Made by a program: the position numbers and the translations under genes. Below, one piece after another: positions 166 to 60,289 of a DNA stretch of 64,000 nt (position 1 is the first letter of the stretch; each line of letters starts with the position of its first letter). This DNA comes from Sphyrna mokarran (Eukaryota): assembly GCA_024679065.1 (NCBI GenBank), contig JAGIQG010000009.1, positions 100,936,001-101,000,000 on the forward strand, read 5' to 3'. The notes beneath the pieces were generated by a model. That model made no database searches. It was not told the origin of the DNA and saw only the letters and a program-made list of their open reading frames with translations.

Positions 166-192
166 CTTTATCCTTTCTTCGTAACCGTTCCT
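166..192 (-). CDS. 27-nt micro-exon (class B) of the coiled-coil micro-exon gene, (E)ERLRRKDK
   Basis: Minus strand ttttctcttattttcgcag|AGGAACGGTTACGAAGAAAGGATAAAG|gtaaaa; phase 1-1, open; closely similar to the exon at 22886-22912. Confidence 0.85.
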
Positions 193-925
193 CTGCGAAA
201 ATAAGAGAAAAACACGACATTGGTTCCTTCTCATCATAAAATCTAAGTACTCAGATTAATCTATTTCCAATATAACCATATTAGCGTGACAATAAACAAA
301 GCGAATATCTTTGTAAGTTCTGGAGAGTGACGTTACAATTCCTGTAATTTTTATGTGCACTGAAGTATGTAGGCTAAATAAATAGCAGTAAGCAATACAT
401 TTTATTAAACAACTAACTTAGCAGCATTGACCTAAGCTGGGTAATAAAAAATGTTATGCATAATTTAATCGTCTATTCTAAGCCATTCAGAAGTGATTCA
501 TTTTGGATAGTTTAGGCTATTAGTTTCCTAAATAAATCATTTCTATTTAATGTTGGTTTGAATTCATTTGTTACGATTTTAAAAATAACATATATATGTC
601 TGAGTTCCTGTAAATCGTTCACTTGAAATTCGTTATTTTTAAGTTAATTTAACTGCTCATTCATCACGAAACATACGTTTCGAACAAGAATCCTGCACAA
701 TATTGATCGGATCGTACAGGTGGAAGATTGAATTTGATCAGTTACCAGTTCAATACCACGAACTGATTGCTCGTGACTGTTATACTTTAAAATAAGTATC
801 CAGTTGATTGGCCGATGTAGAATGTTATCCCACACTTTAACAAAATTTAATGGAAAGTATTTACAGTATTACCCTGTTGTTACAAACAGTTACTTTTAGT
901 TGGTTGCGGATTTACGCAACGAAAA

Positions 926-1870
926 TAAAGAACAAAGAACAAAACAGCACGGAAAACAGGCCCTTTGGCCCAACGAGCCCGCGCGGCCACCCCGATGTCC
1001 CCACCTCTACCCGTGATCCCAGTCTATGTTTATTGATGTATGGATTAAAAACCAAATTTGAGACAATTTAGGGAGAATTTGTTTTGCCAATTAGCCTAAG
1101 AGCACATCTTTGGGATTTGGGAGGAAACCGGAGCACCCGGAGAAAACCCACGCAAGCACTGGCAGAATACGCAAACTCCCACAGACACAGGCCCAAATCC
1201 ATGTATCTGCACAGCACAACGATAGTCACTGAGCTGTCGTGTTGCCCATCAAATGGTCCAGGTCAAGCGTACATTAACGACGTGAAGCACTAGGCTACTC
1301 TCGAAAAAAGAAATCCAAGAGCAGCCCTCTCACGACCCATCGCGTGTATTCGCCTTGTTAGACAACAAGGTGGACCAAAGCACCTGTAGGATAAAAACGA
1401 GTGCATCAATATCATCATCTATTTACACACTTCCCAGGGACTCCCAAGGCTCATGATCCCTATTTTAAATCAGTTTCCTAAACCCCTCCATTCCCATTCT
1501 GTTCATGTGCCCATCTAGGTATTTCTTAAATAACTCCAGAGTGTCTGCCTCTACCACTTTATTTGCCAGCGCATTCCATACACCCACCACCCTCCGTGTG
1601 AAAAACTCGCTCTAGCATCCAACTTATACCTTACCCCCCTCAACCTAAGCCGTGACCCCTCGTGGTATTCGAGTCCATCCTAGCAAAAAGGTTAACCCTG
1701 TTTACTCTGTCTATACCCCTCATAATCGTGTACACCTGTATTAGATCTCCTCTAAGTCTACGTCTATCTAAGGAAAACAACCACAATTTGCCTAATCTCT
1801 CCCCGTAACTCAGACCTTCCACACCAGGAGGCATCCTGGTAAACCTCCTCTGCACTCTCTCCAGAGTCTC
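926..1870 (-). mobile_element. 5'-truncated CR1 LINE with a long 3' UTR ending in an HE1/V-SINE-derived segment (chimera copy 1)
   Basis: ORF 1640..1900 reads LERVQRRFTRMPPG..LSYGERLGKLWLFSLDRRRLRGDLIQVYTIMRG (CR1 ORF2 C-terminus); V-domain core ctccgggtgctccggtttcctccca on the minus strand; (TTCTTTG)n-type tail near 930-945. Confidence 0.85.
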
Positions 1871-2409
1871 CAACGAGAATATTCTGTAAACTGCATTCAT
1901 TAACTTTCTGAGGGATGCATGTCAATAATTGTGAAATTACCTATTGTGACGTACATTCGTCTTGCATTCAAACTCAGATCAACCTCTGTGTTTAATAGCC
2001 CCACAAATACAATACAACCGCTTCTCCCTCTCTCTCTTTCTCTTTCTCAAAGTAAGACATAACAAATTGTAACGAAATAATTAAAGCAGCGATGTGGGGC
2101 TAGGTGATGTGTTATAACTGCTTGTTGTAGGAGCTCGTGGGCTCGATTATTGTTGCTGGAAACCTCATCTGTAGCTTGTTGCCTGAGGATTCTGGCTTAG
2201 TTTTGGTGAACTGTCGTCTGAACTTCAAACAATGCAACACGTCCGGAGATTTACCTGGATGTGTTGATTCCAGAGGCAATCAAAAACCCAAAGAACAATT
2301 ACATCAAGTTCATCAGTGGACAGGAATGGAATTATGTTGCTGCGAGCAAAGGAGCTTGAGGATCCCAGGATGTTTTGCTGAAAGAGCCTTGTGCTGTCCA
2401 AACAGATTT

Positions 2410-3440
2410 TAGGTAATTGTTTCTTAAGCGGTTGAGGGCCGGGTCTCCATGGAGAATGAACAATCTAACCAACATAAGGTTGCTTTGGGAGCCATTCAAT
2501 GGATAGGATAAGGATGGGGCATGGGGAGCATAATGTAGATACAATTGGAGACTGTGTATTCAGGAGAATACCCACTGTTCTTTGTAGTAATGGTCGTGGA
2601 GCCCAGAAACTTCTGCTGCATACGTGTGCTCTGGTTCAGGACATTCCATCGGCACTGCAAAGGAAGTTGCAGCGTGAAAGGAAAGATTCAGTAGTCATAA
2701 GCCAGGTGCGTATTAACAACAGAGGTAGAAAAAAAAAGTAATAGTCTTTTTTTGCTGCGGGAGTATGAGCAACTAAGAACGAAAAAAAAACAAAATAAAA
2801 GAGGTCCTTATCTCTGGATTACTATTTCAAGCAAAAACGAATTGTCACATGATCTAGGAGATCATAGACATAAATGCGTGGCTCAAGTATCGATGCAAGA
2901 GAAGTGGGTTCAAATTCATGGGACGTTGGCACCAGTACTGAGGGACGAGTGAGATGCTTCGATGTGACGTGCTCCACTTGAGTCATGCTGGATCAGAGCG
3001 CTGGTGAAATGCGTAACTACGGTTGTATATAGGGCTTGAAACTAAATATTGGATGGGAAAGGGGCTGCAACTGCTTTCGAATTTTTGAAGAAAGATATAT
3101 TAAAAGAGTGAGATCCCAGCGAAGATTATTAAAGTCCGCATCAGACATAATAGATCAGCGTGTTTGGATAGAGTTACGAATCTAACTTCAGGCAAAGCAG
3201 ACACGAAGGCGACTAAGAAAAGAGGGATTGTCAATGCGGCACTGAGGGTGTTGCATTTGAGTCGCACAGTATACAAAATAAGGCATATGAATTGTAGCAT
3301 AGATTCAAATTGGCCGTAATGTCGTTATGGGCCTCACAGTGAGGTAGTGATAAGCGGTCAGCGCTGGGAGCTAAATTTCCTAGTTTACACGTACTATCAA
3401 AATGTTAGGATGGTGCGCACAAGGGCAGGGTTGCTTTGTT
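2410..3440 (+). mobile_element. Degenerate CR1 LINE: ORF1 esterase domain and start of the ORF2 endonuclease
   Basis: ORF 2499..2741 (TIGDCVFRRIPTVLCS...ALVQDI...VRINNRGR) and the following LREYEQL resemble CR1 ORF1 (IGDSIVR...PGARVQD...HVGTNDIG); 3240-3440 resembles the APE endonuclease N-terminus, with frameshifts. Confidence 0.7.
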
Positions 3441-3449
3441 TATGAAATG

Positions 3450-3595
3450 GAGACACGAGAACCTGAGGACACGGCCTCAAAGTGAAAGGAAAACCATTTT
3501 TTGAACAGAGATGAAAAGGGTCTCCTTAGCATTTAATCTATGGAATTTATTGCCACAGAAAAAAAAAGTAGAAGCCAAGACATTGAATACATTGG
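3450..3595 (+). mobile_element. CR1 ORF2 3'-end fragment
   Basis: gaggacacggcctcaaagtgaaagga...gagatgaaaagg...aatctatggaatttattgccacagaa (TRGH.LK / NLWN.LP motifs). Confidence 0.65.
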
Positions 3596-4112
3596 TGTCC
3601 AGAAGTCTTCTCTCTCTCCCTGTCTCTCCCTCTGTACCTATATATCATCTTTCTTTTTTCAGCTTTTCTCTCCTATATAGTTGTTGTACAGTTATTAGGC
3701 CGTCTACTTCTAGACAACCATTGTATGCAAGTGTCAACATTTATTTTAGGTGAAGGTGAGAGCGTCAGAGCGTCTGATAATATAAAGTCGATACTCAATT
3801 AATATTCTATACGCGAGTAAAATAATTGGGATAGAGAATCTTTGCGACGTGATCACTGCTGCAATTAATGTGTGCAGTGCACATTTATTATTTAGCGACC
3901 ACATCGTGAAAATTTCTGCAAAAATCTGTCTTTACATAATCTATCACCCCTTTAAAATCGTTTTCGTTTTTCCCAATATGTTGTCTATCTAATTAAAATA
4001 TGGGTGGAACAAAAGGCTCTATCAAATTTACTTGGTGTAAAAATGCCTTAATATGTTCATCCAGTAATTTACACACGAACAACTTAATGCTTCAAGATTA
4101 TTTTCTTCTTAC

Positions 4113-4148
4113 CAGCATCCAGTTTGAAAGCTTCTATTTTGGCTATTT
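4113..4148 (-). CDS. 36-nt micro-exon (class A), (E)IAKIEAFKLDA
   Basis: ttcctttatgttaattcag|AAATAGCCAAAATAGAAGCTTTCAAACTGGATGCTG|gtaaga; phase 1-1; paralogous to EMEQLEAIRRDV. Confidence 0.85.
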
Positions 4149-5914
4149 CTGAATTAACATAAAGGAAGAAGCATAGCAAATTCATCAACCGTTATTGTTT
4201 TTATTTCTGCAGTGTAATTAATTTGCAGTCCGTGCAGAACAATGTATAGGCTATCTTTCATATTTAACCAAAAGATATTCTAATTTAATGAAACCTTAAT
4301 ACGAATTGACACAGCATACTCCCCAGGGACCTTAATTAAACGTTATCTTCAGCCAATCAAATATTCTTCACAAATTATTTTCCGTTACTTTACAGCCTGT
4401 GGCGGAGAGGATCCAGATCCTCGATGTTCCTAAATATATGCGTGTTTGACCACTGATAATTCGGCAGCAAAATGCATACCTGCAACTGACGATTTGCTGT
4501 ATTAGTTTTTTTTTTCTGTCAATCAATGCCATTTTCTTCATTGCATAGAAAGTCCATGAAGCAGCTTATGCCAATTGAAGCTTCAGATGAATGCAGCATT
4601 CCTGTTGGCATTTACACTCTTTTTATTTTTCAATGTCCGGTCACTGTGTTCAGTATTAGAAAACAACAATATGTTTCTGATAATATTTCCGTTAAATCTG
4701 CATTCTCCATTTCATTCCACTCGTTTCTGATGTGTTGGAATGAGTTGGGAATGCTCCGTTTCTTTGCAGGTTTTGGGGCAATGTTCAAAAATCTGTTGAT
4801 CAATATTTTGTTGATATAAATATATAGAAACACCATCTCTTGTAATTCCATCTTTTCACCTCTCCGCCATTTTAGACCAAATTTAAATTGTTTTAAATTT
4901 TCAAATGCTTTCCCTGTGCATTTCCAAATGCCCTCTACTCTCTCCTCTTTTTTTAAGGAAATGTTTTGTTTTCGATTTTATAAAATATTTTTCGAAAATA
5001 TGTATATAATATATAAAAACTTAATTTTCAAATACTTCATCTGTACCGTAGGTAGACCCTGTTATTTTCTTCGAAGTAGCTGCAATGATTTCATACTGAA
5101 GCATGAACATTGTTTCATCACTTCGAAATAAATGCAGCCTATCGTCATATATCAATTATGTTTTAGTCAGATCTGTTGTTAGGAGTTCAATATTTTCATC
5201 CAAGTTTCGAAATTTTGGGCAATGGTTTACTCGTCTTACGTATGGACGTCGAACAACTTAAATGCAACTTAATAAGGAAAATGTGAGGACATTTGCTGAA
5301 TTTAATCTATTCAGTTTTATGTCTGCTCCATGAGTAGGCATCGCTAATATTTTTCTACGGAACAAACCCTTGTTCTTGTGTTGCAAGACAGCAACCAGCA
5401 GACATCGGCATATATTATTTGCAAGTGGGAGTAAATTGGACCTCCGTAATTTAAACCTTCACTATAGCAAATACACACGAACTTATCTTTGCAGTACTGC
5501 AAATGTCCAAGCGTGCAATGACACAATAGCTCTTACAGGCAAATATTGTGTTAAAGGTTGCATGTTCCGAACATGTCTGTATAAGATCCCATGTTAATGA
5601 AAATTGATTGCAATCGACAAATAATTCTTCCAAAAAGAAAGAACTCGGCAGCTGTTCTCAAATCTCTTTCGTTTTTCCCCCTCCATTATGTATTACAACA
5701 ATTCACTTGAGATTAGTGATAGCTCTATAAAAAATCAGTTGATACAGATATTTAATAAATTGGGGCTTCTTATTCGTTTTAAAACAAAAACACTTTCTCA
5801 ACCTGCCTTGCGAAAATGAAGATTCACCTCACAGGCACTAAAGTCTCTGAGAAATATTTCTCCAATAAAAAAATAAAACCTCCACAACAACAGACCGCCA
5901 AATCTATTCCATTA

Positions 5915-6180
5915 AGATGAAGAGTAGGCAATGGGAACACAGCACCGGGAACTTTCCTTACATGCCATGATGGTTCGGGAAGATAGTGCCTGTTCTTCTC
6001 TATCGCTGAATTAAAATGCTGGATCTCAATCCCTCACAGCACTGTTTGTGTGCACCTGCACCACATGCACTGCAAAGGTTTCAAACTACCATTCACCACC
6101 GGAATATCCAGATCAAGTGTCATAGGCAGCAAATGCTGATCTTGTTAGTAAGTAAAATCCACATTCTGGCAATGAATGTG
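5915..6180 (+). mobile_element. Degenerate 3' end of a CR1/L2-group LINE
   Basis: atgggaacacagcacc...aaaatgctggatctcaatccctcacagcactg...cacctgcaccacatgcactgca...aatgaat; a related sequence lies in reverse orientation at about 51460-52050. Confidence 0.55.
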
Positions 6181-8581
6181 GAAAAGACATTCCTGATTTC
6201 GAGGCTTTTCGCTTTTATTAAACGTTGTACTCTTCGCAGAGGATGCTATTTCTAACTTATACTGATTCTCTGTCACGGTATTAAGACGTGCTCTTCCATT
6301 GTTTGCTCCATTATTTTTTTCCACTAAAAATGCGTATGAATTCCTCTGCCCGGTTTTAATTATTGCCATTCCTCCCACGTATTTTAACTGTTGTTACTCA
6401 GTAGTAATCCAGGTCCACGTAAATTAAGGCAATCAATTTATCTTAGTGAATTCCTCTCTTGATAACATCGAAAAACATAATTCGCCAAGATAATAGTTAT
6501 TTCTTCCGAAAACGACCTTGGGAAACTCAGGCATGCTCGAGTTTTATATTAATATGACGCTCGATTTCATATGTTCGTGTTTCGCTTTTCTTCTAATAGC
6601 TCATCATTCAGCGCTGCGTTCGTGGAAATTTCGTTGCGTGAACGGCTCGGAATGGACAAAATGTAACCCTTCGCTATCATGAACGCGAAGCAACTAACTG
6701 ATTTTTTTAAAGATTAACACGAACATTATGACGTTACGCTCATCAATTAGAGTTACTCCACAGAATACGCTGACCAGAAACACAAATCGCAGGCAAACCC
6801 CTCCCTAAAAATCTAAAAATGATAAACGTAAGGAGACCTTCAAACGTTCACCTCGCACATCGTTCGTTCAAAGCACAGTGAACATTGCAGCACGTTGCGT
6901 CAACTATTATGTCATAATTAAAACCGAGGTGGTCACTTCAATTAATAAACTGAAAAACTACGCTTAAAAAAATCAAATAGTTACTCGAAGCCTTGGCAAA
7001 TTGTGAATTCAAGATTTTAAGATAAGGTTTAACATTCCATAACATTTTCGCTTTCAGCAAACTCCATGCCCTCTGTGTCAGCTTAGGCAACGACACATTC
7101 CTATTTCGAACGTATTCTCTTAACAAATGTTTTAAATTATATTCGCCCGTTAGATTTCATTTGAATTTCGTAAATCTATGACAGTCGTTTGCATAGCTGT
7201 TTATTATTATTTACAGCTTGTACAGCCTAACAAAACTGATGCAACTACGAGCTCTGATGGTTTCGTCATATATTGGAGTTGGAATGTCCCTCAGCCGTAA
7301 GATACATCTATCAGCAACACCGCTCTCTGGTCAACAGAGAAAGGTTTCAGCTCGCCATTGAGTGCATGACCAATCCACTCCAATAAATAATAAGTACCGC
7401 ATTTGCTGCACAATTGTCCTCCTAAATAGCATTCATCTTGTGAATTGCCGGCACGATAACATCACGCTTCGTCGAAGCATGAACGGATTCAGCGTCGCAC
7501 CTTTAAAAAAAATGTGAGACAGGACATAGGGAGAGGTATTAACTAAGATTATCGCCAATTTGGTCGATGACTGAGCTTCCGGAATGTATTAAAGAAAGGC
7601 CAAAAGTGGAGGCATAATTATGAAGAATACTCAACTGGGTGCATGCCCAAGATTACTCGAGAAATTATAATTAGGCACACTCAAGACCTCGGTCAGTACA
7701 CATAGCTCTATAGGTTTTGAAGGGCGACAAGATCAAATGGATAAAATGTTGCCATGACATGGAATGGATTTGTATGCAAAGCGCAATTTCATTACGTTGT
7801 TTCTACGGTAGCGAATGCATTCAGTAAGCATGGGGTAATGACCGAATTGACGTCAACATAATGTTTCGACAACTCCAGTTCATTTCAGGCATTAAATAAT
7901 TTGATTTGCATGATTAATTGCCACAACCAAATGGTACAAGTCTTAATTTCATTACGAGATCGTTGGATGTCCCACTGTTTGTTATTAACCTAGTGACAAT
8001 GTGGTATAGTGCTTTACGAGGGTAAGACATACTAACTGATACCTACGAGTTCAAATGATTTACATGATGCAGAACGGATCGAATAAACAGACTACACGAT
8101 TCTAATACTAAGTGCTCAGTAATGAATGATAGATGCAGAAAAAAACGCATTTTTTATTGTTTAGTGATTACATTATCAGGATGTGGCCGAGCAATATGCA
8201 TTGCTCTTCTATGTCCAAGAATCAAGATATCCATTATATAGTGGTGTGGATCGGAACTGGAAAGTATCTAAAATGAGAACGTTTGGTGCTTTCCCTGATC
8301 TTGAAGAATGAGCTGTACTCCGAAGGAACTGGATTTATAACATTCTATGGGGTTCATGATTTTTCCCAAGCAGGTAATATATACGATGTTGAAACCCCAG
8401 TTAATAGACCTGATTTTCAGCACTAAGTAATATTCCAATGTTTTTGTTTCGTCTAAACATCAAATATTATGATATTATGAACGAAATACCACGAATAATG
8501 TCTGGACATTTGACTCTATTACAATATTTCACAACAACACAAAATTTCAATTCAAGTTTTGATTTGTAAACGTTTGTGGAC

Positions 8582-8617
8582 CTGCATCAGTCAGACGCTC
8601 TTTCAAAGATCTAATTT
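8582..8617 (-). CDS. 36-nt micro-exon (class A), (E)IRSLKERLTDA
   Basis: cg(t)10gcag|AAATTAGATCTTTGAAAGAGCGTCTGACTGATGCAG|gtccac; strong acceptor, weak donor; paralogous to EIDRLKESLKNA. Confidence 0.78.
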
Positions 8618-9777
8618 CTGCAAAAAAAAAACGAATCAAGCAAATGTTGCGAACAGTGAATTGGCTAATGAATGCTACAATTCATAATCATCAGTTGAAC
8701 CATTATGCTATTTGAGTTCCTTGCACTCGTAGGAGGACAAAATTTAAGGCAGATCAGTGGAATACAAAAAAAAAATGCATTCGAAACTTATTGGATATGT
8801 CTTGTGCGTTGGAGAGGATCGTGATGACAGAACCATTAACAGTGCGTCATATTTTGAGAAATATTATATTTTTATTTTGGTTCTGCTAAAAATGTATGAA
8901 TTCAACCCATTATTAATACCATCATTTTAGAGTATTTCCAACTCTAACACGCATCCCACACCATTTACCGAAGAAATAAATACAAAGTGATGGCATTTTG
9001 TTAGATTAATTTTAAATTATGATTTGTCTTAATGATATGAGACTCGTTGGGTAATGTTGCCCTCCATTTGCAGCAAACTGTCGCTTAGCTTTTCAGAGCG
9101 CCTCTGTAAATGAACGTCTGATCGATTGGCCGTCAACAACATTTATGCACAGTTGAATCGTATGCAAGAGCCAGGTGGATCTATGCAGTTCCAAGAGAAT
9201 GTACTTAACGGCTGTTTTGAAGATATCCGAAGATGCACTCAGTTACACGAATCATGGGTAATTGTCAAAGAAAATGATACAAGGAAGCCACTAATGTGAA
9301 ATTAAACAACGACTCTGGTAACAGGGAGATATCCAAGGATTGCGTGGCTTTTGTTTTATTATACAAACGACACTCAGCTTGATGCATTACGGACATCTCT
9401 ATAACTGTGAACTATATGCACCTTATAACCTTAATTAGCACAACACATTTCAGAAACGGAATTTCCATAAATGCTACATGCAATATCGTGCACCTTGTAA
9501 AGACAAATCACATTTCCTCAAAGAAAATACTTTTATATTCGCACAAATGCTAATGGTAAATGAAAAAAAAAATAGATGAAGGGGAAGGAACGTATCTTGT
9601 AAAATCTCACTGTCCTGGCTCATTTAGACCACGTTTAGACCTCGTTAACTTGTGCTTAAACCTCTCTCCACTCACATTGTCTGTATTTTTGAAACTTAAT
9701 TACCCGTCAAGACCTGCATTTCAACCATTACCTTATAAATTGAGTTTGTATATATGCCCTGTTTGTGAGCACTATTC

Positions 9778-9998
9778 TTCACTCACTTGATGAAATAGCA
9801 GCATTCCGAAAGCTTGCACTACCAAATAAACCCGTTGGACTTTGACCTGGTGTTATGAGACTTCTTAGTGTCAGGGTACTATCAGTGTAAATACATGAGG
9901 CTACGAAAGGGGTTCTCTGAAGGATTGCTGTCTGTTGACTTGACTTGATGGGCTGAGTAGTTTCCTTCTGCACTGTAGAAATTAAACGATTCCATGAT
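9778..9998 (+). mobile_element. Short retroposon debris: Penelope-type terminal segment plus CR1/HE1-type tail
   Basis: actcacttgatgaaatagcagcattccgaaagct...aaataaacccgttggactttgacctggtgtt followed by gacttgatgggctgagtag...ctgcactgtag. Confidence 0.5.
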
Positions 9999-10011
9999 TC
10001 TGTGAACTGAC

Positions 10012-10038
10012 CTGCATCCTTTTCGCTGATTTCTTTTT
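10012..10038 (-). CDS. 27-nt micro-exon (class B), (E)KEISEKDA
   Basis: gtgtttttgtttacag|AAAAAGAAATCAGCGAAAAGGATGCAG|gtcagt; phase 1-1; carries the AAG-GAT (KD) motif of class B. Confidence 0.85.
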
Positions 10039-10774
10039 CTGTAAACAAAAACACGGATCTAAACATGTTTTCTGCACACATTTTTTCTGAAGAGCAATTG
10101 ACATTCTTCACAAATATACAGGGGGAGCATTGAGAGCATTGAGCATTGTATATATCAATAGAAAAAAAAAGGGAAATGCATTGATGTAGTTCATTGAAAA
10201 AAAAAGAAACACACCTTTATGTCGCATTCTCCCTGATCGACATGTTCAGATGAAAAGTAAAATAAAAAGTAGAAACTTTTCTCTCTCTCTCTGAATGATG
10301 TTTTCCGTTACGAAACGAAGACAATGCGAGTATACTTGTTTTGATTCCAGAGAAAATGAATTGGCTTAGGATGTGTAATGTCTATTACTGTATAAGATGA
10401 AGAATACAAATAAAATTACAAAGTTCCATCACGAATTTATAAACACCATATAACGGAGGTGATGTATCAAGGATTATTGAATTCGGGGGTTCACAAGCAG
10501 TTTCCTGCATGGCAGAAAAACAAGCCAGAGAAATCAATGTGTCATTAATCTGTCCAATAGTGAAAACTATGACTAATGCAGGAGGGTGTATGTTTTTCAT
10601 GAAAAAGAAGCTAAAATAATAAAAGGAAACAACTTTACGAAGAAAGTAGAATCTCCGTAGAAAATTATCGAAACAATTAAGGAATTATAGCTGCAAAAAA
10701 AATGAAGCAAGCAAGCTGAACTGAAAGGAAGTAATTTAGTCCTTTATAATCATTTCGGGTAGCCGTTTCGATGT

Positions 10775-11161
10775 TTTATTCATTCATGAGGTATGAGGTC
10801 GCTGGCTGGCCAGCAGTTATTACCCACCGCTAACTGCCGTTTTACTGAATAACTTGCTAATTCATTTCAGATGGAAGTCGAGAGTCAATCCCATTGTTTT
10901 GATTCTGGACTCGCATTTAGACCAGACGAGGTAAGGGCGCAGATTTCCTTCCCTAATGGATATTAGAGAACCAGTTGTGTTTTTTTTTGACAATCGACAA
11001 TGGCTTCATAGTCATCAGTAGATACTTAGTTACAAATGTATACACTCTACTTTCGAGTTACATCAGCTGCCGTAGTGGGATTCGATCTGGTGTTGCCGGA
11101 TCATTAGTTGAGTTTTGGGATTAATAGGCAAACAATAATGCCAGTAAGCCACCTCCTTCCC
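10775..11161 (-). mobile_element. tRNA-derived Deu-domain SINE (SacSINE1-like)
   Basis: Reverse complement contains the Deu-like core ctggttctctaatatccattagggaaggaaatctgcgcccttacctcgtctggtc, a B-box-like gatcgaatccc in the head and a (tgaa)n-type tail. Confidence 0.7.
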
Positions 11162-30412: not shown

Positions 30413-30424
30413 AATTAAATTCAC

Positions 30425-35830: not shown

Positions 35831-35857
35831 CTGTATCCTTTATAAGAAGTTGTCTCA
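35831..35857 (-). CDS. 27-nt micro-exon (class B), (M/V)RQLLIKDT
   Basis: tttcttgtcttctcaaacag|TGAGACAACTTCTTATAAAGGATACAG|gtaagt; consensus donor, KD motif. Confidence 0.85.
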
Positions 35858-44645: not shown

Positions 44646-44672
44646 TGGTATCTTGAAGTAGTTTTTTGAATT
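44646..44672 (-). CDS. 27-nt micro-exon, (E)FKKLLQDT
   Basis: catttttgattatttaattcag|AATTCAAAAAACTACTTCAAGATACCA|gtaagc; phase 1-1, open. Confidence 0.75.
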
Positions 44673-45399: not shown

Positions 45400-45830
45400 T
45401 TCCAACAGAATTTCAAATTGGACTGTTCAGTAATGCTTGCATAGTGTTCAGCAACATTCGGCTATCTCCTCAGTTACTGAAGCAGTTTCTGTCGAAGTCA
45501 ACCAAGACCTGGACAATATATAAGTTTCGGCCGACAATTGACAAATAATATTGTGCCACCCAAGGGCAAGATAATTCCTAAATCTAGCAAGCGGTCAGTT
45601 GACAATTCCTCCTTGTCATCTCAAGACGCCATGGCCACTTAATATCCAACTATGAACACAATTTACCAGAGACCGTGCTGGACTAGCCATATAAATACTA
45701 TGGTTACAAGAACAGAGTTCAGCGATCAAGTAATGTAAAGGACAAACAAGAATCGCAAATTCGTTGTCGACATTCAGAAATTTCGCAAATGCTCCAGTTG
45801 ATATCTTCAAGAAAATTCCCATGAAATTTT
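45400..45830 (+). mobile_element. Degenerate LINE RT fragment (CR1/L2 group)
   Basis: caagacctggacaatatataagtttcggccgacaattgacaaataatattgtgccacc (QDLD.I..WA..W...F motif) and ctggactagccatataaatact. Confidence 0.6.
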
Positions 45831-50020: not shown

Positions 50021-51459
50021 GTTTCAATGGAGTGCAATTTAATGATAATTTAAAACATGGAGTACGCAGCATTCTCCACCCAAGTTAGTTAAACCTAGCA
50101 TTATTGTATTGTGTAAGTTTAAATTAGTCTATTTGGCATCTCGTTTCATTCATAGATCAGTTCTAACATACAAAGCACGAACTTGGTGGCAAAGAATGAG
50201 GGCTTATGGTTACTCGACAACAAGTGCCATTCCGGCTGAGGAAAAAAAAGACTGACGTTTTCAAAAAAGAACATTCGATGCCTTGGCGTTTGGCACGATG
50301 CATTTTAATAGATCTGCACATTCTTTGGTGTAATCTGTGCTCGCATTGTACAGAAAAGTGCCTGCCGATTGCTGTATCACAAACACACATGCATTTGGGT
50401 GTGTATTCGTGCAGGATTCGGCAATTCAGCAGACATTTTTTCATATATGTTCTGATTCAACAAATGGTACTCGCATTGCATCGACTAATAATATAATTAT
50501 TTTAAGGAAAACTAGAGAACTATAGCCAGAAGGAAACGAATGACGACATGCTAGTTTTAGATGACTAAAATTACATCTGAGTGCAACGTAAACTACACCA
50601 CAGACTAACTTGTTCGAAATGCCTGCTTCCCTGGCATAAATCTTACTTCATCAATTCATTTTCAAAACTGAACAAAAATCTATCTCCGAGACATAAACGG
50701 ATTAGCCCAACGTTGTTTTTCTGTTGACAAATCGTTTAGAATTCCGATTCGACTGCATTTTATTTTATTACTGTTTCCCCATTAATTTCATCTGGAATTT
50801 ATTAAATGCATTGTCGGATTCTAATAATCAGAATGATCACATAGGTTCGTGCAAAATGTCATACAATCGTTTTGCAGGTCGGTTATGCTCATTGCATCAA
50901 GTCAGGGATGAATCCATTGTTTTACATAAAGTGGGTTAAAGTAATGTCTGTTTTAAACCTGACACTAAGACTGAAAAAACGATCATTGAAATTTCTATTT
51001 GTTTTAAAGGGTGCAGTTGGCATTCAAAGAAGAAATGATGCGAGATTGAAGAAATGTGAACATGAACGTTTTTCCATGCAAGTGTGGGAGCAATTTAATT
51101 AATCAGCTATTATGTTGATTGCATATGGATAAGTTGATTGTAAGCTCACGTTCAGTGTTTAAAATTCGGGGACGTGTTAATCTTCATGGATTTGCATTTT
51201 CTCTGACAATTTTTGAAGTTCATTCTCAGAAATAATAAAATGTTCTCTTCTGGTGGCTCTCCATGAAGCAATGTGTACAAGCTGATGAGTTTGCCTGGTT
51301 TATGTCTCCGCCAAGAAAGAAAGAGAAATCCCAATAGCGAAGTGTTCGACCATAGTATAGCCAAGTGTTCGCTATACTCAGTTGTGTTATTTTTGTTCCG
51401 TATATCATTACTGAAAAGTGGCTATGGCAATTTAATCTTCTGATTTGCTTCATTCCTAC

Positions 51460-52050
51460 CAGAGATGTTGTTTTCGCTGGCTATGACCACATACATTGTG
51501 AACCATCATTTGCATTTCGGAAGGCGCCAATGAGTTGTGTTCTTCAATCGCGGATATACAAATAACAATAGTGCTCTGTGGGAGGATTTTGACACAGACG
51601 GTGACGCAACAGCAATATATTTCCAATGTAGGATGATGAGAGATCTCTAATACAACTTCCAACCGGTGACATCCCCATTTACCTACTAGATTTGTGCTGC
51701 TTGATTGTAGTGATCTCGTGCATGTGATGGATGCTGCCTTGGGACCTTCGGAGGATTCCTGCTGTACATTATGCAGATAGTTTAATGTGCATCGTTGGGG
51801 GAGAGACTGAAGACATGTGGACGGGTTATCAGTTAAGCGGGTTTCTTCGTCCTGAATTATGTCAAGATTCTTGGAGCTGCATTCACCCTGACAGGGTCCA
51901 CACAATTGACCCCTGCTTTACTGTTTAGAAATTCTAGGAAGTCACGAGGAAAGTAGCTTGCCTCAGAATTCACAACAACTGACGTCTTATTGTAAACACA
52001 CTTCATGGCTAGTCCGTCTCTGTTCAATGGTAATTTCCAGTATTGTGACA
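51460..52050 (-). mobile_element. Degenerate CR1/L2-group LINE 3' region
   Basis: Minus-strand text resembles 5915-6180 (catcctacattggaaatatattgctgttgcgtcaccgtc..aaaatcctccc) and overlaps 45670-45700-type sequence. Confidence 0.6.
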
Positions 52051-55000
52051 ATTTGGTAATCAGCTGCAGAAAAGAAAATGAACGTTATAGCAAGATTTGG
52101 TTTTCTCTTGCTGATTAAGTTAATTAGACTACCGTTGCAAATCTAAAGCCTACATATTGCCGCGGTTTTGCTGCTTTTTCACATGGACTGCTTCATCAGA
52201 GGAATGTGGAATGCTATTGTACACTATGAAATCATTAGCTCGCATTATGACATTATGATATGCTGGGACATAGGACAAAATCGTGCTCAAGATCATATTC
52301 AATATTTTTCTGAACTGAATTCAATTCCAAGTGATATGGATAGGCATAATAGGAAGTCCTCGTGTCAACGAAAAAAAAGTTGTATTTGAAACGGGGATTT
52401 TTTTTTTTTAAGTTGCCTGATAACTCATGCCAGGAAGAAAAGCGACAAACGCACAAAATCGACTCTTAAAAATAATAGTATTTAAATAACATTGTGAAAC
52501 CATAGATTGAAATAAGTCAGACGTGATACTTCGATGATTTGTTATAATTTACTATTAATAATAGATTAGTGATATATTTTTTTAAAAAAAAGACTATACC
52601 TCTATAGCTTTGATATAATTTCTCTATTGGAAGGCAAGGGATGCAAATGAAAATGTGACAGTTACTCCAAGACATGTAAAGATAAACACTGTCTCAATAA
52701 CAATATTTCGGGGCTCCAGCATCATGAAGTTTTTTTTAAAAAGCGCAAAACAGGATGTGCATTACGGTTGCTTCATGACAAGTTGACTAATTTCCCGAAC
52801 AGTTTAGCGTCCCATAAGATTATTGTGGACTACGTTTAAAATGAATAAATAGGCAGTCATCTGCTTTCCACTTCAAGTGCAATATTTTCATGAGTGTCCA
52901 GCACCTTGACAAATGTTGTCAATCCGTTTGGTCGACCAGTGAATTAAGATTCTTGCTTAACTTATCAACTACAATCTTTAAGTTACTTCTGCCTACTCCA
53001 TTTTATGAAGTAAAATGCGAACCTCATTTGATACAGATATTGGCATCCAGTCAAATGTATTTTGCCAAACTTGGATCGGATATGCATGACAAATGTTTCT
53101 TATATTAGACGTTGGTGGCTGGAAATGCCAGATGTTCCCCTTTGTGGTAAGATTGATTTTGCAGTTAATATTTGGAATATTTTGCTTTGAAATTCCTCCA
53201 TTTTGCGCACTGACCTTTGTTAGAAGTTCTATGAAGGAATATTTTCCGGAACATAATGTGGTATTTCCTATCCCACAATATTCAAATAAGCCCTTGAAAA
53301 TTACATTGAGAATGAATTTAAGTCATATCCATTGATTTCAATCACAACATAAAAATCAATATAGTGGTTGGAAAGGTGTTCCAATTTTACAAATCAGGAC
53401 ATAACGTCAAAACTATCATTATATGTATGAAAAACTATTTTATCCATGAGCTCTATTGAACACAGATTTCAAATGTTATTTTGGAATTATCAAATGTCTG
53501 GCGCTATATATGGTCAATCTTAGATCTGGCAACATGTTCCTTCATATGTGTGCCTCCACCCGAGTGCGCATGCGTCAGGCGGGGTGTGCTGGAGCGAAGC
53601 TCTGAAAGAAAAACGTCGTATGTTTCTGTCTTATGAATAAAATGACAATTTAACTGATGCAGTAGAATGTTTGGGTAATGAAAGTCCAGGTCGTGGCTAG
53701 ACGCGATTGCGAGACTAGATAAAATAATTGATGCATAGAAATACACCATAATCTTGCGAATATTGAACTTCTGTTAAATATCAATGTACATCTGACTACA
53801 GACTGTACTTCCCAAAAGTTCGGTTCATTTTCCGCTAATTCAATTGAGCGTTTAGCTATTTAGGCAAGATATATGTTCTAATAACTGTTGCAGATATGCA
53901 GGCAACATTTTGAGCAATAAAGTTGAGTTCTCCGAAGTTTTAGCACTACGTTCTCTATGAGGATTAACTAGACAGTCAGCGGTGCAAGATTCCTCGCTGA
54001 AAAACACGTATCGCCTCAGTCCATCCAGTGTAATTTTTAGTTCGCCTGAGAAAAAGAAGGTTGCCCAACAGATTTGTCAAGAAACAATAGATTGGATTTC
54101 CAGTGCATGGGAATGAATTCTTCGTAAAAGTTCGCTACCCTTGACTTGTCATCTATTCTGTTACATGGTTAGAAAATTTTAAATTTGCTTCAGATCTTGA
54201 GTGTGATTTGCCATAAAGTCGCTGAGAATACCTGCATATTTAAAAGTTGTTAAAGGTGCATTCTATATGTCCCTTCACAACTGAATTTGCACGAATGGAA
54301 TGTCCAATTGTTATGATGCGATTTCATTTCAGGTGCCTGTACGTATTAAAACGTAGTGCCGCTTTATGGTGTAGTGCTCCGTGATATAAACTGATATATT
54401 CTTAATACTATGTCATGAAAATAAAATCTGTTGATTATCGTTTTGCTGGATAATTTCACATTCAGGTAAGCAGCAGGGGGTATGAAAATCTGCTCTTAAT
54501 TAAAAGCTTTAAATCTCTGATCTCACGGGAAAGTAGTAAAAAAGAATGTAACTTTGATTCTTATAGAATCAGGGAAGGATTTAAATGCATACATTTCTCC
54601 TAAAAGTTCAGCAAAGGAATACTTGTCTCTCCCCCATGATTGGTACAAATTCCATAGCAGATGAAACACAGTCCAGAAAATTTACGCTTGAAATGGTGAA
54701 ACGTTTTTCAAGCCCGATGTGTATTTGTATTCATTAAAGATAGGATTGCAGAAAATAACGTTGGCAAACTCGGGGTCGTTTCACTCCGATCAATATACGG
54801 CTGTAAAACCCGTCGCATTCGTTTAGTTGCAAAAAAAAACACTACCAATGATTTTGCATGGTCGCCCATATTTTTCTTGAACTTGTGATAGATTGTGTTA
54901 ACCAGTGCGACTCACTGGCAGTTATTTACATGGAAACTATAGCGGACTACGTGGACAACAAAATGCATTGACCCGAATTTGATGTCTTAATGATGGGAGA

Positions 55001-55903
55001 ACTATTGTTGATGGGCATCAGAACTCAATTTACGTTCAGCAAACTTCTGGCACGTGGGTAGAGTAACCGATATCCAGTAGCTGCTGCCAGAGTTTCTATC
55101 ATTCGCAATAAGATCTGCTTTTAAGACTTCTCAAAAGACCAGTCTGCAAAAAATGAATGAATTGAAAATAGTTTCCATGGTTCGCTCTTGCTAATGATGA
55201 ACAAAAATAGATGACGTTTAAATACAACTTGCACGTTCTGGGAAAATGCAAAAAAAAAACATTGACGCCAAATATTAATCTTGTACAATTTGAAATGTAT
55301 CTTCTGTTCAAGAGGATTATCTAAGTTTATCACGGTAATTGATTTTAAATTGAATTTGGCTATATTTAAGTGCAATTATAAATTATTTGGCCTTTTTAGT
55401 CCCCTGTTTGTAGAATTCTATGCAGATATCTTCCTCGTTTGGACGGGATGCCAGGACTTTGCCATTGACATCAAAGTAACTGCACGACTGATGATTCTAT
55501 TGATTTGACCGCATATCTTGATTCCCTGCATGAGAAGATATATTCTGCTGACAGCGCTCATTTCTTGTGAGCATATGTTTTACAGGTCAGGTAAGTTTTA
55601 TTTTTCTTTGACCCGTTACGGTTGGTACGGTTGGCGTGATTCATCAATTTAGTTTCCTGCTTATTAATCCTTCCATTCAACTATCTATTGTTTCCTAAAG
55701 ATGAATTCACATGACACTTTAGTGCGATTAGTATATTATGTTCACATGAAACAGTATGATCATGAGATATGGTCTACTTTAGGACAATTGGCGTTAGAGA
55801 AACGTGCTGATCGTGCTTTTATCCACGACACAAAAATAAGCTTTCCAAGGATTCTTTGAGTGGACTACATTTCCATGTTCTTTTTTTTTTTGTCAAATCG
55901 TAC

Positions 55904-55932
55904 CTCTGCTTTATCACCAATTTTTTTTTCCT
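55904..55932 (-). pseudogene. 29-nt class-B-like exon homologue that breaks the frame, (E)EKKIGDKAE
   Basis: ctttatcttttaccgcaacag|AGGAAAAAAAAATTGGTGATAAAGCAGAG|gtacga; its 3' end resembles GATAAAGAAAGAG|gtacat of exon 60263-60289, but the length is not a multiple of 3. Confidence 0.5.
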
Positions 55933-55940
55933 CTGTTGCG

Positions 55941-56517
55941 GTAAAAGATAAAGTATGTTTGAAGTACGCTTGCTCTAAGAGTGAAAAGCTGATCTCGACA
56001 CGTTTTGACATTTTGCCCCCCATGGAACTCAGCAAACGCATTAGTAAATTTGTGAGTTCACATTTGTTATTTTAGTTATTGTTGAAATTTTCGCAATTTT
56101 CAACAACAATGAATTTCATATCTAACATGATGTAACGTTTTGTGCAAACAAACTTACAAAGAGAAAGATACTTTTTCACATTTGTATAGAAACACATACA
56201 AGCACGAATAAAATATTAATTTAATAGTGGAAAAGGTGGAGTATGTTTGAAATACACTTGTTCTAAGACTGAAAAGATAATCTCGACACATTTTAATTCC
56301 CCCCCCCCCCCAATGAAACATAGCGGACGCATTACTAAATTTGTGACTACACATTTGCTATTTTAGATATTGCTGATTTTTTTTGTTGCAATTTTCGACA
56401 GCGATGCATTTCATACATAATATGATATAGGTTTCTGTGCACACAAACTTACAGAAACACACTGTTGCACATTCATACAAAAAATACATGCTCAAACGGA
56501 AATATTAATTTAATAGT
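55941..56517. repeat. Two-unit tandem duplication, period about 288 bp
   Basis: gtatgtttgaagtacgcttgctctaagagtgaaaagctgatctcgacac (about 55953) versus gtatgtttgaaatacacttgttctaagactgaaaagataatctcgacac (about 56241); both units end aatattaatttaatagt. Confidence 0.88.
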
Positions 56518-57432
56518 TTTCGAAATTGAATATTGGATCTCACACCCCGCTGACGAAGAACACGCCAAAAGTTGGGGTATGCAAGAGTTATGTTCGATCA
56601 GATGAATACGTCTAACGGCAACGCGGCTTCCTTTAGTACTATATTAGACGGTTTGATTGTGATTTGCAGAAAAAGTGGAAAGCACCCGAAGCAGAAGCAA
56701 TCACAGGATGGATAATTTTGAAAAGAGAGGAGCAGACGTTAAATTGATGCAGTAACGTCCGTAGCAAGGGACAGCAAACTAGAGGATAGAAAAAAAAACG
56801 ACAAAGATGTGTTTGGTGATAGCAATTGATATGAAAGTTCTCAAGAAGAGAAACCTGGAGCGAACAGAAATAAGTGCAGTGGAAAAATCTACCCCTGCCT
56901 GAGAGGTAACGGGACAGCAGATGATGCTTGTGGATTCGTAATACATATTTCATTATGCCTGTCGCTGAGAGTGTGAAGGGCAGATGGGAAGAAAAGGTTA
57001 CTAATGGTTCACTGAGTGCAAGTTCACAACTGTTTTTGTTGCCAATTGACTAGTCAAGGACTCTTAAAACAACTGTAAAAATAATTTAAAAGAACTCTAC
57101 CGAATGACACTTCAGTAATATACGCTGGCAGAAACAAATAATTGTTTATTTACTTCATGGCAAAAATCGTGCAGTTTTCAAATCATCGGAGATAGAACAT
57201 TGTTTCAAAATGCGCGTCAGAACTTGCAATAATCCTGACTCAACAGACGAATGGGAAATACCTTGGAAGCTTAAATTCCTGTTAAGAAGGTTCCCAGCAT
57301 CACTGAATGGTAAACAATGTGTGCAGGCCTGACCTTAATGGAGAAACTTTGGTTAAACTGGTAGCAGTTACCTGAATACTTACCTAGGAAATATTTGACA
57401 ATTGTGTATCCAGTCAAAGAATTGCTTAAGAT

Positions 57433-57570
57433 AACTGAATATCAAAACTGGATGATTCGGTCTCTCCCTTGCCATTCAACGACATGGCTATGCCAAACAA
57501 TTGGCTGAGAGAACTGAATGTCAAATCTGGATGATTCGGTCCCTCCCTGGCCATTCAATGGCATGGTTAC
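57433..57570. repeat. Direct repeat of about 58 bp, period 79
   Basis: aactgaatatcaaaactggatgattcggtctctcccttgccattcaa versus aactgaatgtcaaatctggatgattcggtccctccctggccattcaa. Confidence 0.85.
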
Positions 57571-58589
57571 CCAAAATAATCGATGAACAATCACATCCTG
57601 ACTGTCATCCGGACAAGGTGGCTAACTGTAGAACATGAACAACGTGCAACAAAAGAATCACAAGCAAACATGGCTTGAGACAACTAATTTCCAGTTTCAC
57701 GCTTGCTGAGCAGAATACTGAGCAGAATGCTGAGCAGAGATATCACTCCTCAAAGAGCAGAATAATTTATGGCCACCGAACGACTCCACAGTGAAGCCGA
57801 CGGTCCCTTACTATTTGTGACAAAAAAACACCGAGGGCTCAACACTCACTGTATTTGCAAAAGGCCCAGAAGACCAAATAAACCACTCTAATCACGTTAA
57901 AATACTTTTCTGTCCGAGCTCAGGACCCCACATCTAATCGTGAAAATCACGAAACTAAATTCAGAAAGAAGTGTTACCATTCAAATTACACGTGCTACCA
58001 AGATCAAATACGTCACATGCAATTATCTATCCTTTGCAAAGTAACCAAATGCATGGGGAGACGTCGACGACCATCTGGTTACACGTGACAAATTAACTAC
58101 TTCAGCGAAACGACCCCAAGAGACCTCCGATCATTGCAAAACGGTCCCAGCCTGCTAACTAACACGATCACCAACGACAAATATCGAGAGATCGTAATCC
58201 CCTCACTGGCAGACCACTTTCCTCCATTTAATCTCCAAATCTCCATGTACATGATTCAACTGGCAGCAGAGAGCTGGCCCAACTAACACGACAATACAAA
58301 ATGTAACTTTCCATCCGCAACTGCCTATCAGTCAACCTGAACCCATCCGACAAATTAGCTATATCCAGCATCATAGCCGAAAAACTCCGAAGCAGAAACG
58401 TCTAACAGCCCTTAGCACACAAGTATAGCAGGATAATGACTGGATGCTCTTCACCTAGCCGAAAATAATGTGGAGAGTATTATCCGCGGATGAGGTGTGT
58501 TTGTGCCTCGTGGAACTGTCTACCCTGCGTACAAGATCCAACTACACACAGGATTTCCCAGCTCTGCACCAAACAAATGACAACCCGCC

Positions 58590-58760
58590 CTTATAAAACA
58601 GCAGATCTTTCATAAACTCAGCAAGTCTGGCAGAGTTTATGTAGAGAAACAGAGTTAACGTTTAGGGTGCAGATGATCCTTCTGTAGTTTTCTCCACAGA
58701 TGATATCAATCCTGTTGGTTTATACAGGATGTTCGGATGTTTTTATTATTTCTTATTTTG
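58590..58760. mobile_element. Short imperfectly palindromic element built from Penelope-type termini
   Basis: aaactcagcaagtctggcag..tgtagagaaacagagttaacgttt followed by ttttctccacagatgat..atcctgttg in the opposite orientation; similar halves at about 27715-27790 and 37300-37390. Confidence 0.5.
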
Positions 58761-59847
58761 AACTTATTTGCTGCATCTCATTTGCCTAAACAGTGAAATC
58801 ACAACAAGTTTGCGGCCGAACTAGTAGTCACCCATCTGCTTACTTACACAGTTAGGAATTTCAATAACCACCCACATACCTAACTTAGTACCCTATTTGC
58901 TTACACGTCAAATTTAATCACCTCGCGCACGGGCACGTATCACTCCAAAACTCATTTTTCTAACTATCCACATCAAAAGTCCAACGAAACAACATTTTCA
59001 TGTTTTCACTGACTACCGGTTGGTTCCTTCAGTCATCTATCTACTAAATCACGAACAGAGCTACATTTATTAAAATGTTCGGAATTTGTCACTTTTACCT
59101 GAATACAACAGCTATTGCAGAAGGATACGATACCCCGTTTTTCCCCCGTTTTTATACGTTTTGGACTTTCCATCGGTACACTGTGCAACACTTTTCTTTA
59201 GTAGCGATCGGAGGATCCTGAAAGGAATGCGCAGAATTATCTGATCGGGAGAAGGAGACTTTAGCGCTGAACAGAGGAGTTATACTGTATTTAAGGGTGG
59301 AATGTGGTCATTTGGATCGTAAATAAGACCTGAATTATATACTGACGCAACGTTGAACATATCGCAATGGCATGCCTCTTCAATTGAACAAGAAGATATA
59401 GGCAAAATAATGCACATTTTGAAAAACAGTTCCCTAGCAATGTACGGACGGATCGTTGCTTTGTTTTACTTCCAGCTCTACCACACATTCAGTGTGCAAT
59501 AGTTCGATCTATGCAGTGGTGACTGTGGTTGGCTCGTGGTGTTGCTAGATCGAGCAGGACAGTTTGCTGAATACCAGGTATATTGTTGCGATTCAGTAGT
59601 TGCAGACGTGTAGGCATGCAAACTAGTTGCATCAGCGGAATTAAGACACCCACGTAAGGAGGCTGAAAATTACTCGTACATTGAACAATTACCCAAAGAC
59701 AATGCCATTAAATTGCATTTTTTTAAAAAAACTTGTATTACAATCAAACGTATATTAAATCACTCGTCAAAGAGGGAACATCCTGCCATGATTTACATTC
59801 ATTATTACAACGATCAATGAAAAATAATCGCTGCTTAGCGAAAACAC

Positions 59848-59883
59848 CTGCGTTTTTCAGACTTTCTTTCAATCTGTCGATTT
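59848..59883 (-). CDS. 36-nt micro-exon (class A), (E)IDRLKESLKNA
   Basis: gtttcctttttgtttcag|AAATCGACAGATTGAAAGAAAGTCTGAAAAACGCAG|gtgttt; phase 1-1, clear heptad pattern. Confidence 0.83.
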
Positions 59884-60262
59884 CTGAAACAAAAAGGAAA
59901 CTGATTAATTCGAATGCAGCAAATCACGTTTTTTAAAAAATTTCACTGGCGGAAGTCGCAGAGGGAAACACAAAACACTGGACAGCTTATTAAAATACAC
60001 AATGTATGGACATGGGCTGTTGCAGTCGCATGCCACATATTCAAGCTTTGATTGACTGTGTTGCTCCCTACTATTCAGAAATCACAATTCACCTTGTATT
60101 CTCGTATTAAGCGCAAATGCGCTGAAGAAAGGAACGTAGAGTGTGTTTATAGCAAAGGACCATTATAATGTGTTAGGTCTTATAACATTGCAAATAGAGA
60201 TAAGAAAATTAACACTAAATATTCTTCGAAAAAATGGCACTCCGCTTCACTTATATATGTAC

Positions 60263-60289
60263 CTCTTTCTTTATCTCGTAGGTCACTAA
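60263..60289 (-). CDS. 27-nt micro-exon (class B), xSDLRDKER
   Basis: gttcatttttgtgaccacag|TTAGTGACCTACGAGATAAAGAAAGAG|gtacat; phase 1-1; paralogue of EDNLRKKER. Confidence 0.82.

Follow-up and report, generated by a model that had tools for sequence, protein, structure and literature searches.

The 64,000-nucleotide window of Sphyrna mokarran analysed here (C1548:100,936,001-101,000,000 in the 2.77-Gb assembly, C1548 being the scaffold name used for coordinates) lies within a same-strand array of micro-exons on the minus strand that encodes a long coiled coil and spans about 2.27 Mb, from 101.375 to 99.116 Mb, with a B30.2 (PRY-SPRY) exon beyond its lower end. The minus-strand phase-1 micro-exons of the window were confirmed as real. 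Our best explanation of the locus, which we consider evenly balanced, is that tandemly duplicated coil blocks are spliced to one B30.2 exon and that the locus belongs to a family of coil plus B30.2 proteins of cartilaginous fish without RING, B-box, immunoglobulin (Ig) or transmembrane parts. Coordinates prefixed with + or - carry the window numbering on beyond the window ends. We read 400 kb on either side of the window continuously (864 kb with the window) and sampled below 100.506 Mb; about 40% of the 2.27-Mb span was read, and the middle 1.35 Mb rests on pattern matches and samples.

Micro-exons of the window and extent of the array

Candidate exons were scored with generic splice scores, that is, frequencies that we set from the splice-site consensus with no codon information. 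Of 35 strong minus-strand candidates in the window, 14 were 27 or 36 nt long, compared with none of 22 on the plus strand; 30 block shuffles of the window gave a mean of 1.2 and a maximum of 5 candidates of these lengths. We also applied an exon model for which 82 seed exons of the wider region served as training set; its exon counts lean on this set. It returned 19 exons in the window with a total of 525 nt, 16 scoring ≥20 and three scoring 15-18; 15049-15084 and 52600-52623 were weak additional candidates. The first-pass annotation of the window had likewise counted 19 exons, with a total of 561 nt, but gave no full list, which prevents a one-for-one comparison with our set. We found no 33-nt exon among the sizes of 15-36 nt that it had given. 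The two exons that it singled out, at 59848-59883 and 166-192, are AG/GT-bounded, preceded by pyrimidine tracts and open in phase 1, as it had stated.

The same pattern was observed in the 864 kb read continuously. Generic scoring yielded 32 minus-strand candidates of 27 nt and 33 of 36 nt versus 3 and 4 on the plus strand, and any other length occurred at most 12 times among the minus-strand candidates. Phase 1 was free of stops in 63 of these 65 candidates, the other phases in 25 and 30. With the trained model, 124 minus-strand exons were obtained versus 2 on the plus strand at a score of 20, and 156 versus 10 at a score of 17 (826 kb). The array ran on the minus strand from +438,957 to -392,011, nearly throughout. 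Further down, pattern matches to the same exon type, all on the minus strand, occurred at 99.15, 99.23, 99.52, 99.84, 99.97 and 100.24 Mb. Genome-wide, a stricter 36-nt pattern gave 9 matches versus 2 in the control; a looser one gave 28 versus 22 for the reversed control and is informative only in that 17 of its 28 matches fall into two regions. In the part not read continuously, four 10-kb samples taken blind contained 6 minus-strand candidates versus 1 on the plus strand at a score of 17, and 4 versus 1 at a score of 20. The 30 kb adjoining the continuously read sequence contained none at a score of 17. Extrapolation from the blind samples puts 138-207 exons in the middle part (95% range 38-450), and the whole locus perhaps holds roughly 250-370. 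As the first-pass annotation had supposed, the locus ends outside the window, which makes up less than 3% of it; the B30.2 end was out of that annotation's sight.

Design of the coil and selection on it

When 151 exons were joined, they encoded 1,479 residues rich in K, E, L, D and R, with Pro and Gly nearly absent and with a hydrophobic period of 3.46-3.5. This period, together with the modelling of the catshark orthologue (see below) as long helices, agrees with the predicted coiled-coil rod. A single-sequence fold of the catshark protein had a mean confidence (predicted local distance difference test, pLDDT) of 55 with its B30.2 part unfolded and supports only the description 'helical'. The claim that the exons join without a stop held across all 151, a result that is partly built in, since candidates were chosen to be stop-free and exons ending in T are absent: the last base was G in 141 exons, C in 8, A in 2 and T in 0. 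Because the exons are symmetric phase-1 exons that end in G, C or A and never in T, any exon may join any other without a frameshift or a stop at the junction.

Among the 150 pairs of neighbours, 38 were a 36-nt exon followed by a 27-nt exon and 30 the reverse. One 27+36 pair has 63 nt, equal to 21 residues or three heptads, while single exons add 9 or 12 residues. Skipping of a single exon would keep the frame and shift the heptad register, whereas skipping of a pair would keep both. Isoform models of relatives in RefSeq, which like all RefSeq models used here are predictions, differ by 6 or 9 residues, in line with the frame-neutral skipping proposed earlier: one internal block of 9 residues in catshark and chimaera, and blocks of 6 and 9 residues in ray. 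Differences of this kind are expected since they are what skipping of single exons predicts.

Growth of the coil by in-frame exon duplication, also proposed in the first-pass annotation, was borne out by six tandem copies of a 27-30-36 triplet between +81,000 and +140,000 (101.017-101.076 Mb), the introns of which align at 72-82%. Exons of this block are 78-89% identical versus 66-75% for the flanking intron, and the ratio of nonsynonymous to synonymous substitutions (dN/dS) is about 0.4 overall, calculated from pairs that are not independent. The coil was shown to be under selection by this ratio, by the higher identity of exons than of introns and by the 63 of 65 stop-free candidates.

The B30.2 exon and relatives in cartilaginous fish

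The nearest downstream B30.2 exon lies 1.83 Mb from the window, and the micro-exons reach down to 99.116 Mb. Its match to Pfam SPRY scores 33 bits, above the cut-off of 26.3. Homology searches for the array's own B30.2 used the sequence as query, tblastn, and a hidden Markov model (HMM) with stops treated as X. The sequence query revealed no further B30.2 between 99.103 and 101.418 Mb (146 of 146 candidates scored), tblastn and HMM found only the exon of an upstream sister gene in 894 kb of continuous sequence, and the HMM found only the known B30.2 exon in 11 further 10-kb loci. A Pfam SPRY match at 98.91 Mb was considered as the end of the array and ruled out, since a B-box of its own lies at 98.93 Mb and it clusters with ordinary TRIMs.

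The B30.2 subfamily comprises at least eight exons in this genome, six on C668 and those at C1548:101.418 and 99.103 Mb. In a tree of 11 rows with two long branches, five of the eight (three C668 copies were left out) and a catshark protein formed a clade apart from five neighbouring TRIM domains, with 100/99 support. The catshark protein XP_038671249.1 has 945 aa with about 770 residues of coil, and its B30.2 is 58% identical to the 99.103-Mb exon. Judged by sequence it is the orthologue, its 9- and 12-residue units being the same and identically ordered. It is matched, in order and with 62-91% identity, by five exons at 99.152-99.116 Mb, and the 19 exons of the window align in order to its residues 349-524. 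When the region read was compared with it in 45-residue windows, 10 of 37 scored ≥70, versus 19 of 185 with the exon order shuffled.

Orthologues of basking, epaulette and whale shark are annotated as little beyond the B30.2 exon, and paralogues are present in ray, skate and chimaera. RefSeq models of the same B30.2 subfamily are XP_078422387.1, XP_060706632.1, XP_038672306.1, XP_069775384.1, XP_055510696.1 and XP_042191566.1. The longer RefSeq models, including XP_038671249.1 ('zinc-binding protein A33-like'), share with the array coils built of the same 9/12-residue units. As a group, the RefSeq models differ from it in being automatic models that carry TRIM or BTN names without the domains that define these families; most hold little or no coil, and the longest corresponds to one block (945 aa). 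Pfam searches of six relatives gave no RING, B-box or Ig, and eight relatives or pieces of them showed SPRY/PRY only, plus one coiled-coil match below threshold. A search for longer proteins with a C668 B30.2 returned nothing at E 1e-30. Close named relatives came from cartilaginous fish only, in agreement with the lineage-specific protein suggested earlier. In the Atlas chordate clusters there are PRY-SPRY proteins of 1,277-1,802 aa without RING, B-box or Ig families (scores 0.93, 0.91 and 0.76); we take these as leads, and long coil-B30.2 proteins may exist beyond sharks. We found no description of a family of micro-exon coil-B30.2 proteins in the open-access literature, supplements and subscription journals being mostly outside this scope, and shark gene lists of the major histocompatibility complex (MHC) may hold models under other names.

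Block structure and the number of genes

In the stretch from about -135,000 to -392,000, the exons reproduce the catshark coil, beginning with its opening cassette (residues 9-67) and reaching residue 718. A match of 86% over 36 nt links the exon at -391,295 to that at 99,121,757, which lies 18 kb ahead of the real B30.2, and in our comparison the next exon agreed as well in its position and last base. Because introns can no longer be aligned between blocks, the duplications are old. One block is clear in the 40% read, and by extrapolation there would be about eight of 270-300 kb each.

In the explanation that we favour, an ancestral gene-sized coil block (about 270-300 kb and about 750 residues, equivalent to the catshark coil) would have been duplicated in tandem about eight times without a B30.2 exon, with single cassettes duplicated inside the blocks. 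A transcription unit of 2.27 Mb would join the blocks by splicing to the sole B30.2 exon at 99.103 Mb, and internal starts and skipping would give rise to shorter isoforms. The predicted product would be a cytoplasmic rod of hundreds of nanometres that oligomerises through its coil and bears a target-binding B30.2 head, and it might act as a spacer, a scaffold or a RING-less decoy or adaptor beside MHC-linked TRIMs.

Several results weigh against this explanation. Exon-poor gaps flank the clear block, as they would separate genes: about 50 kb at -85,000 to -134,000 and at least 38 kb after -392,011, where no candidate scored ≥17 in 38 kb. Two of the four blind 10-kb samples were without a typical 27-, 30- or 36-nt exon, and searches of the 5' region did not find the first exon of the locus. 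The coil of the catshark model is only as long as one block, a sign that blocks may start transcripts of their own. At the level of single exons, the 36-nt candidate at +310,404 (C1548:101,246,404-101,246,439) has good splice sites and stops in phase 1, and the 27-nt exons of the triplet block have a ratio of the proportions of nonsynonymous to synonymous differences (pN/pS) of 1.05. Finally, the 99.103-Mb B30.2 is cut short by a TGA and sits on a long branch. The stop-bearing 36-nt candidate resembles an exon with compensating indels and is possibly a dead exon.

The gaps raise a distinct, though less probable, alternative: a tandem row of genes of about 290 kb each, with a B30.2 only in the last. 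The window's gene, reaching from upstream of +60,000 to about -85,000, would then be coil-only with first and last exons of its own that went unrecognised, and might co-assemble with B30.2 paralogues in the manner of coil-only BG tails. This arrangement accords with the gaps of 40-60 kb on both sides of the -135,000 to -392,000 block, with the extent of this block, which opens with the same cassette as the catshark and ray proteins and stops a few exons short of the expected B30.2, and with the six C668 paralogues, which occupy a few hundred kb each. However, the gaps contain no B30.2 remnant and share no first- or last-exon sequence, although introns between blocks have diverged beyond recognition anyway. 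A CpG-rich bin was found neither in the gap at -85,000 to -134,000 nor at the 5' end, so this feature is uninformative on gene boundaries. It is because of the block structure with exon-poor gaps that we rate splicing through to one B30.2 exon no higher than even and allow the row of genes a substantial share.

The furthest-reaching form of the explanation that we favour is more doubtful still. One gene of 2.27 Mb would possess some 300 or more exons, nearly all of 12-42 nt, rivalling or exceeding the 363 of titin. Its rod would comprise about 3,000 residues and measure about 0.45 micrometre at 1.5 angstrom per residue, with a length set by internal starts and exon skipping. It would be the extreme member of an undescribed, chondrichthyan-wide, RING-less and Ig-less coil-B30.2 family that annotation has truncated and misnamed.

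The stop codon in the B30.2 exon

The TGA in the B30.2 exon takes the position of an Arg in basking shark and catshark. The 20 residues past it are 16/20 identical to basking shark and 14/20 to catshark, compared with 51% identity to basking shark for the domain before the TGA. Given 16/20 identity past the TGA, we regard the stop as of recent origin, polymorphic, read through or due to an error in the assembly. A model of the orthologous basking-shark domain (pLDDT 86.8) matched TRIM7/BTN3 B30.2 structures at E of about 1e-14, and the residues past the TGA form the last two strands of the modelled domain (156-165 and 169-174). With a SPRY match above the Pfam cut-off and a B30.2 fold, the exon belongs with the B30.2/PRY-SPRY domains, yet due to the TGA the domain is not complete in this genome. 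If the TGA is real, the modelled structure indicates that the B30.2 head is probably disabled and the rod is not, and the rod may now matter more than the head.

The loss of these two strands through a TGA in place of Arg, the long B30.2 branch and the one stop-bearing 36-nt candidate could also be taken as signs of a relic, decaying or without expression in this lineage, with the TGA as the mark of lost function. We consider this improbable: 123 of the 124 high-scoring exons were stop-free even with stops allowed, dN/dS is about 0.4 in recent duplicates, and identity past the TGA is still 16/20. Moreover, a stop in the last exon is not expected to cause nonsense-mediated decay, and this TGA would not provoke it.

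Searches for membrane and TRIM domains

No domain-sized exon was found in the 864 kb. None of the 64 minus-strand frames of ≥70 aa at 101.37-101.42 Mb matched Ig, RING or B-box families; one was the sister SPRY, and one gave a weak Tmp39 match below the cut-off. The filter for transmembrane segments retained no hydrophobic exon with a phase-1 end in the 48 kb upstream, although a weakly spliced one could escape it. With 150 of 325 candidates scored, no B-box was detected at 98.94-101.97 Mb. Inspection of the flanks, as recommended in the first-pass annotation, thus produced the B30.2 exon but no Ig, transmembrane or RING exon. The idea that the array is the stalk or tail of a membrane protein was not upheld: neither the upstream sequence nor the relatives scanned yielded an Ig, transmembrane, RING or B-box exon. 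In view of the 64 frames, the hydrophobic-exon filter, the B-box search and the relatives, it is very unlikely that the array is the cytoplasmic tail of a butyrophilin/BG-type membrane protein with undetected Ig and transmembrane exons, or belongs to a TRIM with undetected RING/B-box exons. In favour of such a protein, BTN3A1 is closest by sequence to the orthologous B30.2 among solved structures, the coil has phase-1 heptad exons like the BG genes (PMC5938342), the locus lies in an MHC class I region and the 5' ends of all models are uncertain.

Two further candidates were rejected. A signal peptide hinted at by skate and epaulette-shark N-termini was not accepted, since N-termini of this hydrophobic kind look like pyrimidine tracts read as protein, as do the frames ahead of the B30.2 acceptors; 12 weak signal-peptide candidates were present on the minus strand versus 5 on the plus strand, none of them singled out. 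A Tetherin/PLVAP identity was dropped once the B30.2 was found.

Comparison with known systems

Chicken BG genes are MHC-linked and encode a long coil from many tiny symmetric exons whose first codon is split and whose number varies between genes (PMC5938342, PMC8813856). Like them, the shark locus is an MHC-linked coil assembled from many symmetric phase-1 heptad micro-exons. BG genes, however, combine about 27-37 exons of 21 nt with exons for a signal peptide, an IgV domain and a transmembrane segment, and they lack a B30.2, whereas the shark locus has 27/36-nt exons (a 21-residue pair), hundreds of them over megabases, no Ig or transmembrane exon found, and a B30.2 end. With the butyrophilins BTN2/BTN3 it shares heptad exons followed by a terminal B30.2, in the last block. 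The orthologous B30.2 matched BTN3A1 at E 1.4e-21, and its model matched BTN and TRIM B30.2 structures. BTNs have an IgV-IgC2-transmembrane structure and a short heptad region only (PMC8813856); neither the IgV-IgC2 ectodomain nor the transmembrane segment was found at the shark locus. TRIM-B30.2 E3 ligases resemble it in having a coiled coil and a terminal B30.2 exon, and the locus lies within a cluster of >100 SPRY exons with B-box exons. It differs from TRIMs in the lack of a detected RING or B-box, in a B30.2 of a separate clade and in a micro-exon coil that is far longer. In design, the shark locus resembles a BG-style micro-exon coil that ends in a BTN/TRIM-style B30.2, but it does not match the domain make-up of BG, BTN or TRIM proteins.

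Schistosome micro-exon genes encode secreted products and generate variants by skipping symmetric micro-exons. Symmetric exons are common to both systems, but skipping here appears only in RefSeq models of relatives, and no signal-peptide exon was identified. Human titin has 363 exons (PMC3575840). The likeness to titin is one of possible scale only, an established 363 versus an estimate of 250-370 that is conditional on one gene, and we claim no sequence relation.

B30.2 domains bind ligands and TRIM coils oligomerise (PMC8813856). A TRIM expansion on the bamboo-shark MHC chromosome has been described, the available portion of that account making no mention of B30.2 or coils (PMC7677710). An immune link had been suggested for the locus, and with respect to neighbourhood it was supported by MHC class I and SPRY clusters on the same scaffold; this neighbourhood and the domain type are what would point to an immune role, and a structural role would be possible as well.

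The locus represents a gene family that sharks, rays and chimaeras share, that has at least eight B30.2 exons here and that annotation pipelines have cut to fragments and misnamed as TRIMs or butyrophilins; this locus alone fills more than 2 Mb of the MHC class I region. Its union of the BG design of tiny phase-1 coil exons with a BTN/TRIM B30.2 end bears on the origin of MHC-linked families. As a single gene, it would be a test of how hundreds of micro-exons are spliced accurately over megabases; as a row of coil-only genes, it would be a counterpart to the still unexplained BG tails.

Genomic neighbourhood and annotated features

All 53 MHC class I matches of 53 lie on C1548 at 85.8-95.8 Mb, and more than 100 of 150 scored SPRY matches at C1548:91.8-112.9 Mb, with B-box exons in the cluster. 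C1548:85.8-112.9 Mb is a very large MHC class I/TRIM-B30.2 region in which some SPRY or B-box exons contain stops. The upstream sister gene lies on the same strand at C1548:101.418 to ≤101.97 Mb; its intact B30.2 is 67% identical to catshark XP_038672308.1, and a 27-nt exon at 101,427,987 is a candidate for its penultimate exon. A second cluster at C668:8.5-14.3 Mb has six genes on both strands, with B30.2 exons at 8.56-, 11.34+, 11.88+, 11.93-, 13.72+ and 14.32+ (Mb and strand). Micro-exon pattern matches occur there at 8.9-14.2 Mb, upstream of each subfamily B30.2 on the same strand, and the three C668 B30.2 exons that were read are all intact.

Features annotated in the window and at the two ends of the locus (positions in the window unless prefixed with C1548)
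Feature	Position	Strand	Model score	Remarks
27-nt phase-1 micro-exon	60263..60289	-	20.4	
36-nt phase-1 micro-exon	59848..59883	-	28.8	
15-nt phase-1 micro-exon	55918..55932	-	24.6	
27-nt micro-exon, lower confidence	44646..44672	-	16.8	final A gives Met at next junction; in-order alignment with catshark orthologue
27-nt micro-exon	35831..35857	-	25.2	7/8 residues identical to catshark P0162 257-264
36-nt micro-exon	31320..31355	-	29.7	
27-nt micro-exon	30425..30451	-	33.4	
18-nt candidate micro-exon, low confidence	30215..30232	-	15.1	in gap versus catshark protein
36-nt micro-exon	28995..29030	-	31.7	
15-nt micro-exon	28412..28426	-	25.3	
18-nt micro-exon, moderate confidence	28219..28236	-	17.7	first of recurring five-exon cassette; His aligns with catshark cassette
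27-nt micro-exon, recurring cassette	26951..26977	-	31.5	aligned to catshark cassette
36-nt micro-exon, recurring cassette	25258..25293	-	32.4	aligned to catshark cassette
27-nt micro-exon, recurring cassette	22886..22912	-	27.0	7/8 residues identical to catshark P0162 440-447
27-nt micro-exon, recurring cassette	22361..22387	-	28.2	
27-nt micro-exon	10012..10038	-	33.2	
36-nt micro-exon	8582..8617	-	30.7	7/11 residues identical to catshark P0162 485-495
36-nt micro-exon	4113..4148	-	29.4	
27-nt micro-exon	166..192	-	35.1	
Whole window, internal to locus	1..64000	-		array extends both ways
Terminal B30.2 exon	C1548:99,103,309-99,103,835	-		phase-1 acceptor; in-frame TGA 20 codons before homologous end
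B30.2 exon, intact, of upstream sister gene	C1548:101,418,260-101,418,780	-		terminal exon, closes sister gene; 5' bound of locus

Introns of the window contain decayed frames resembling long interspersed elements (LINEs) or retroelements, recognised by eye at 17102-17416, 19446-19901, 29923-30414 and 32805-33976; one such frame produced a false 48-nt exon candidate at 19649-19696. A recently active repeat family is represented in several introns by copies 97-99% identical over 1.4-2.6 kb, near 100.782, 100.925, 101.151, 101.177 and 101.263 Mb. The mean CpG observed/expected ratio at C1548:100.54-101.43 Mb is 0.66 at 38-40% GC, which is high for a vertebrate. A plus-strand open frame of 293 codons with coiled-coil-like content at C1548:98.944 Mb adjoins the 98.93-Mb TRIM. 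SPRY and B-box scores on C1170 are identical to those of the 103.08-103.14 Mb TRIM array of C1548, and C1170 is likely a haplotype duplicate or the two are very recent tandem copies.

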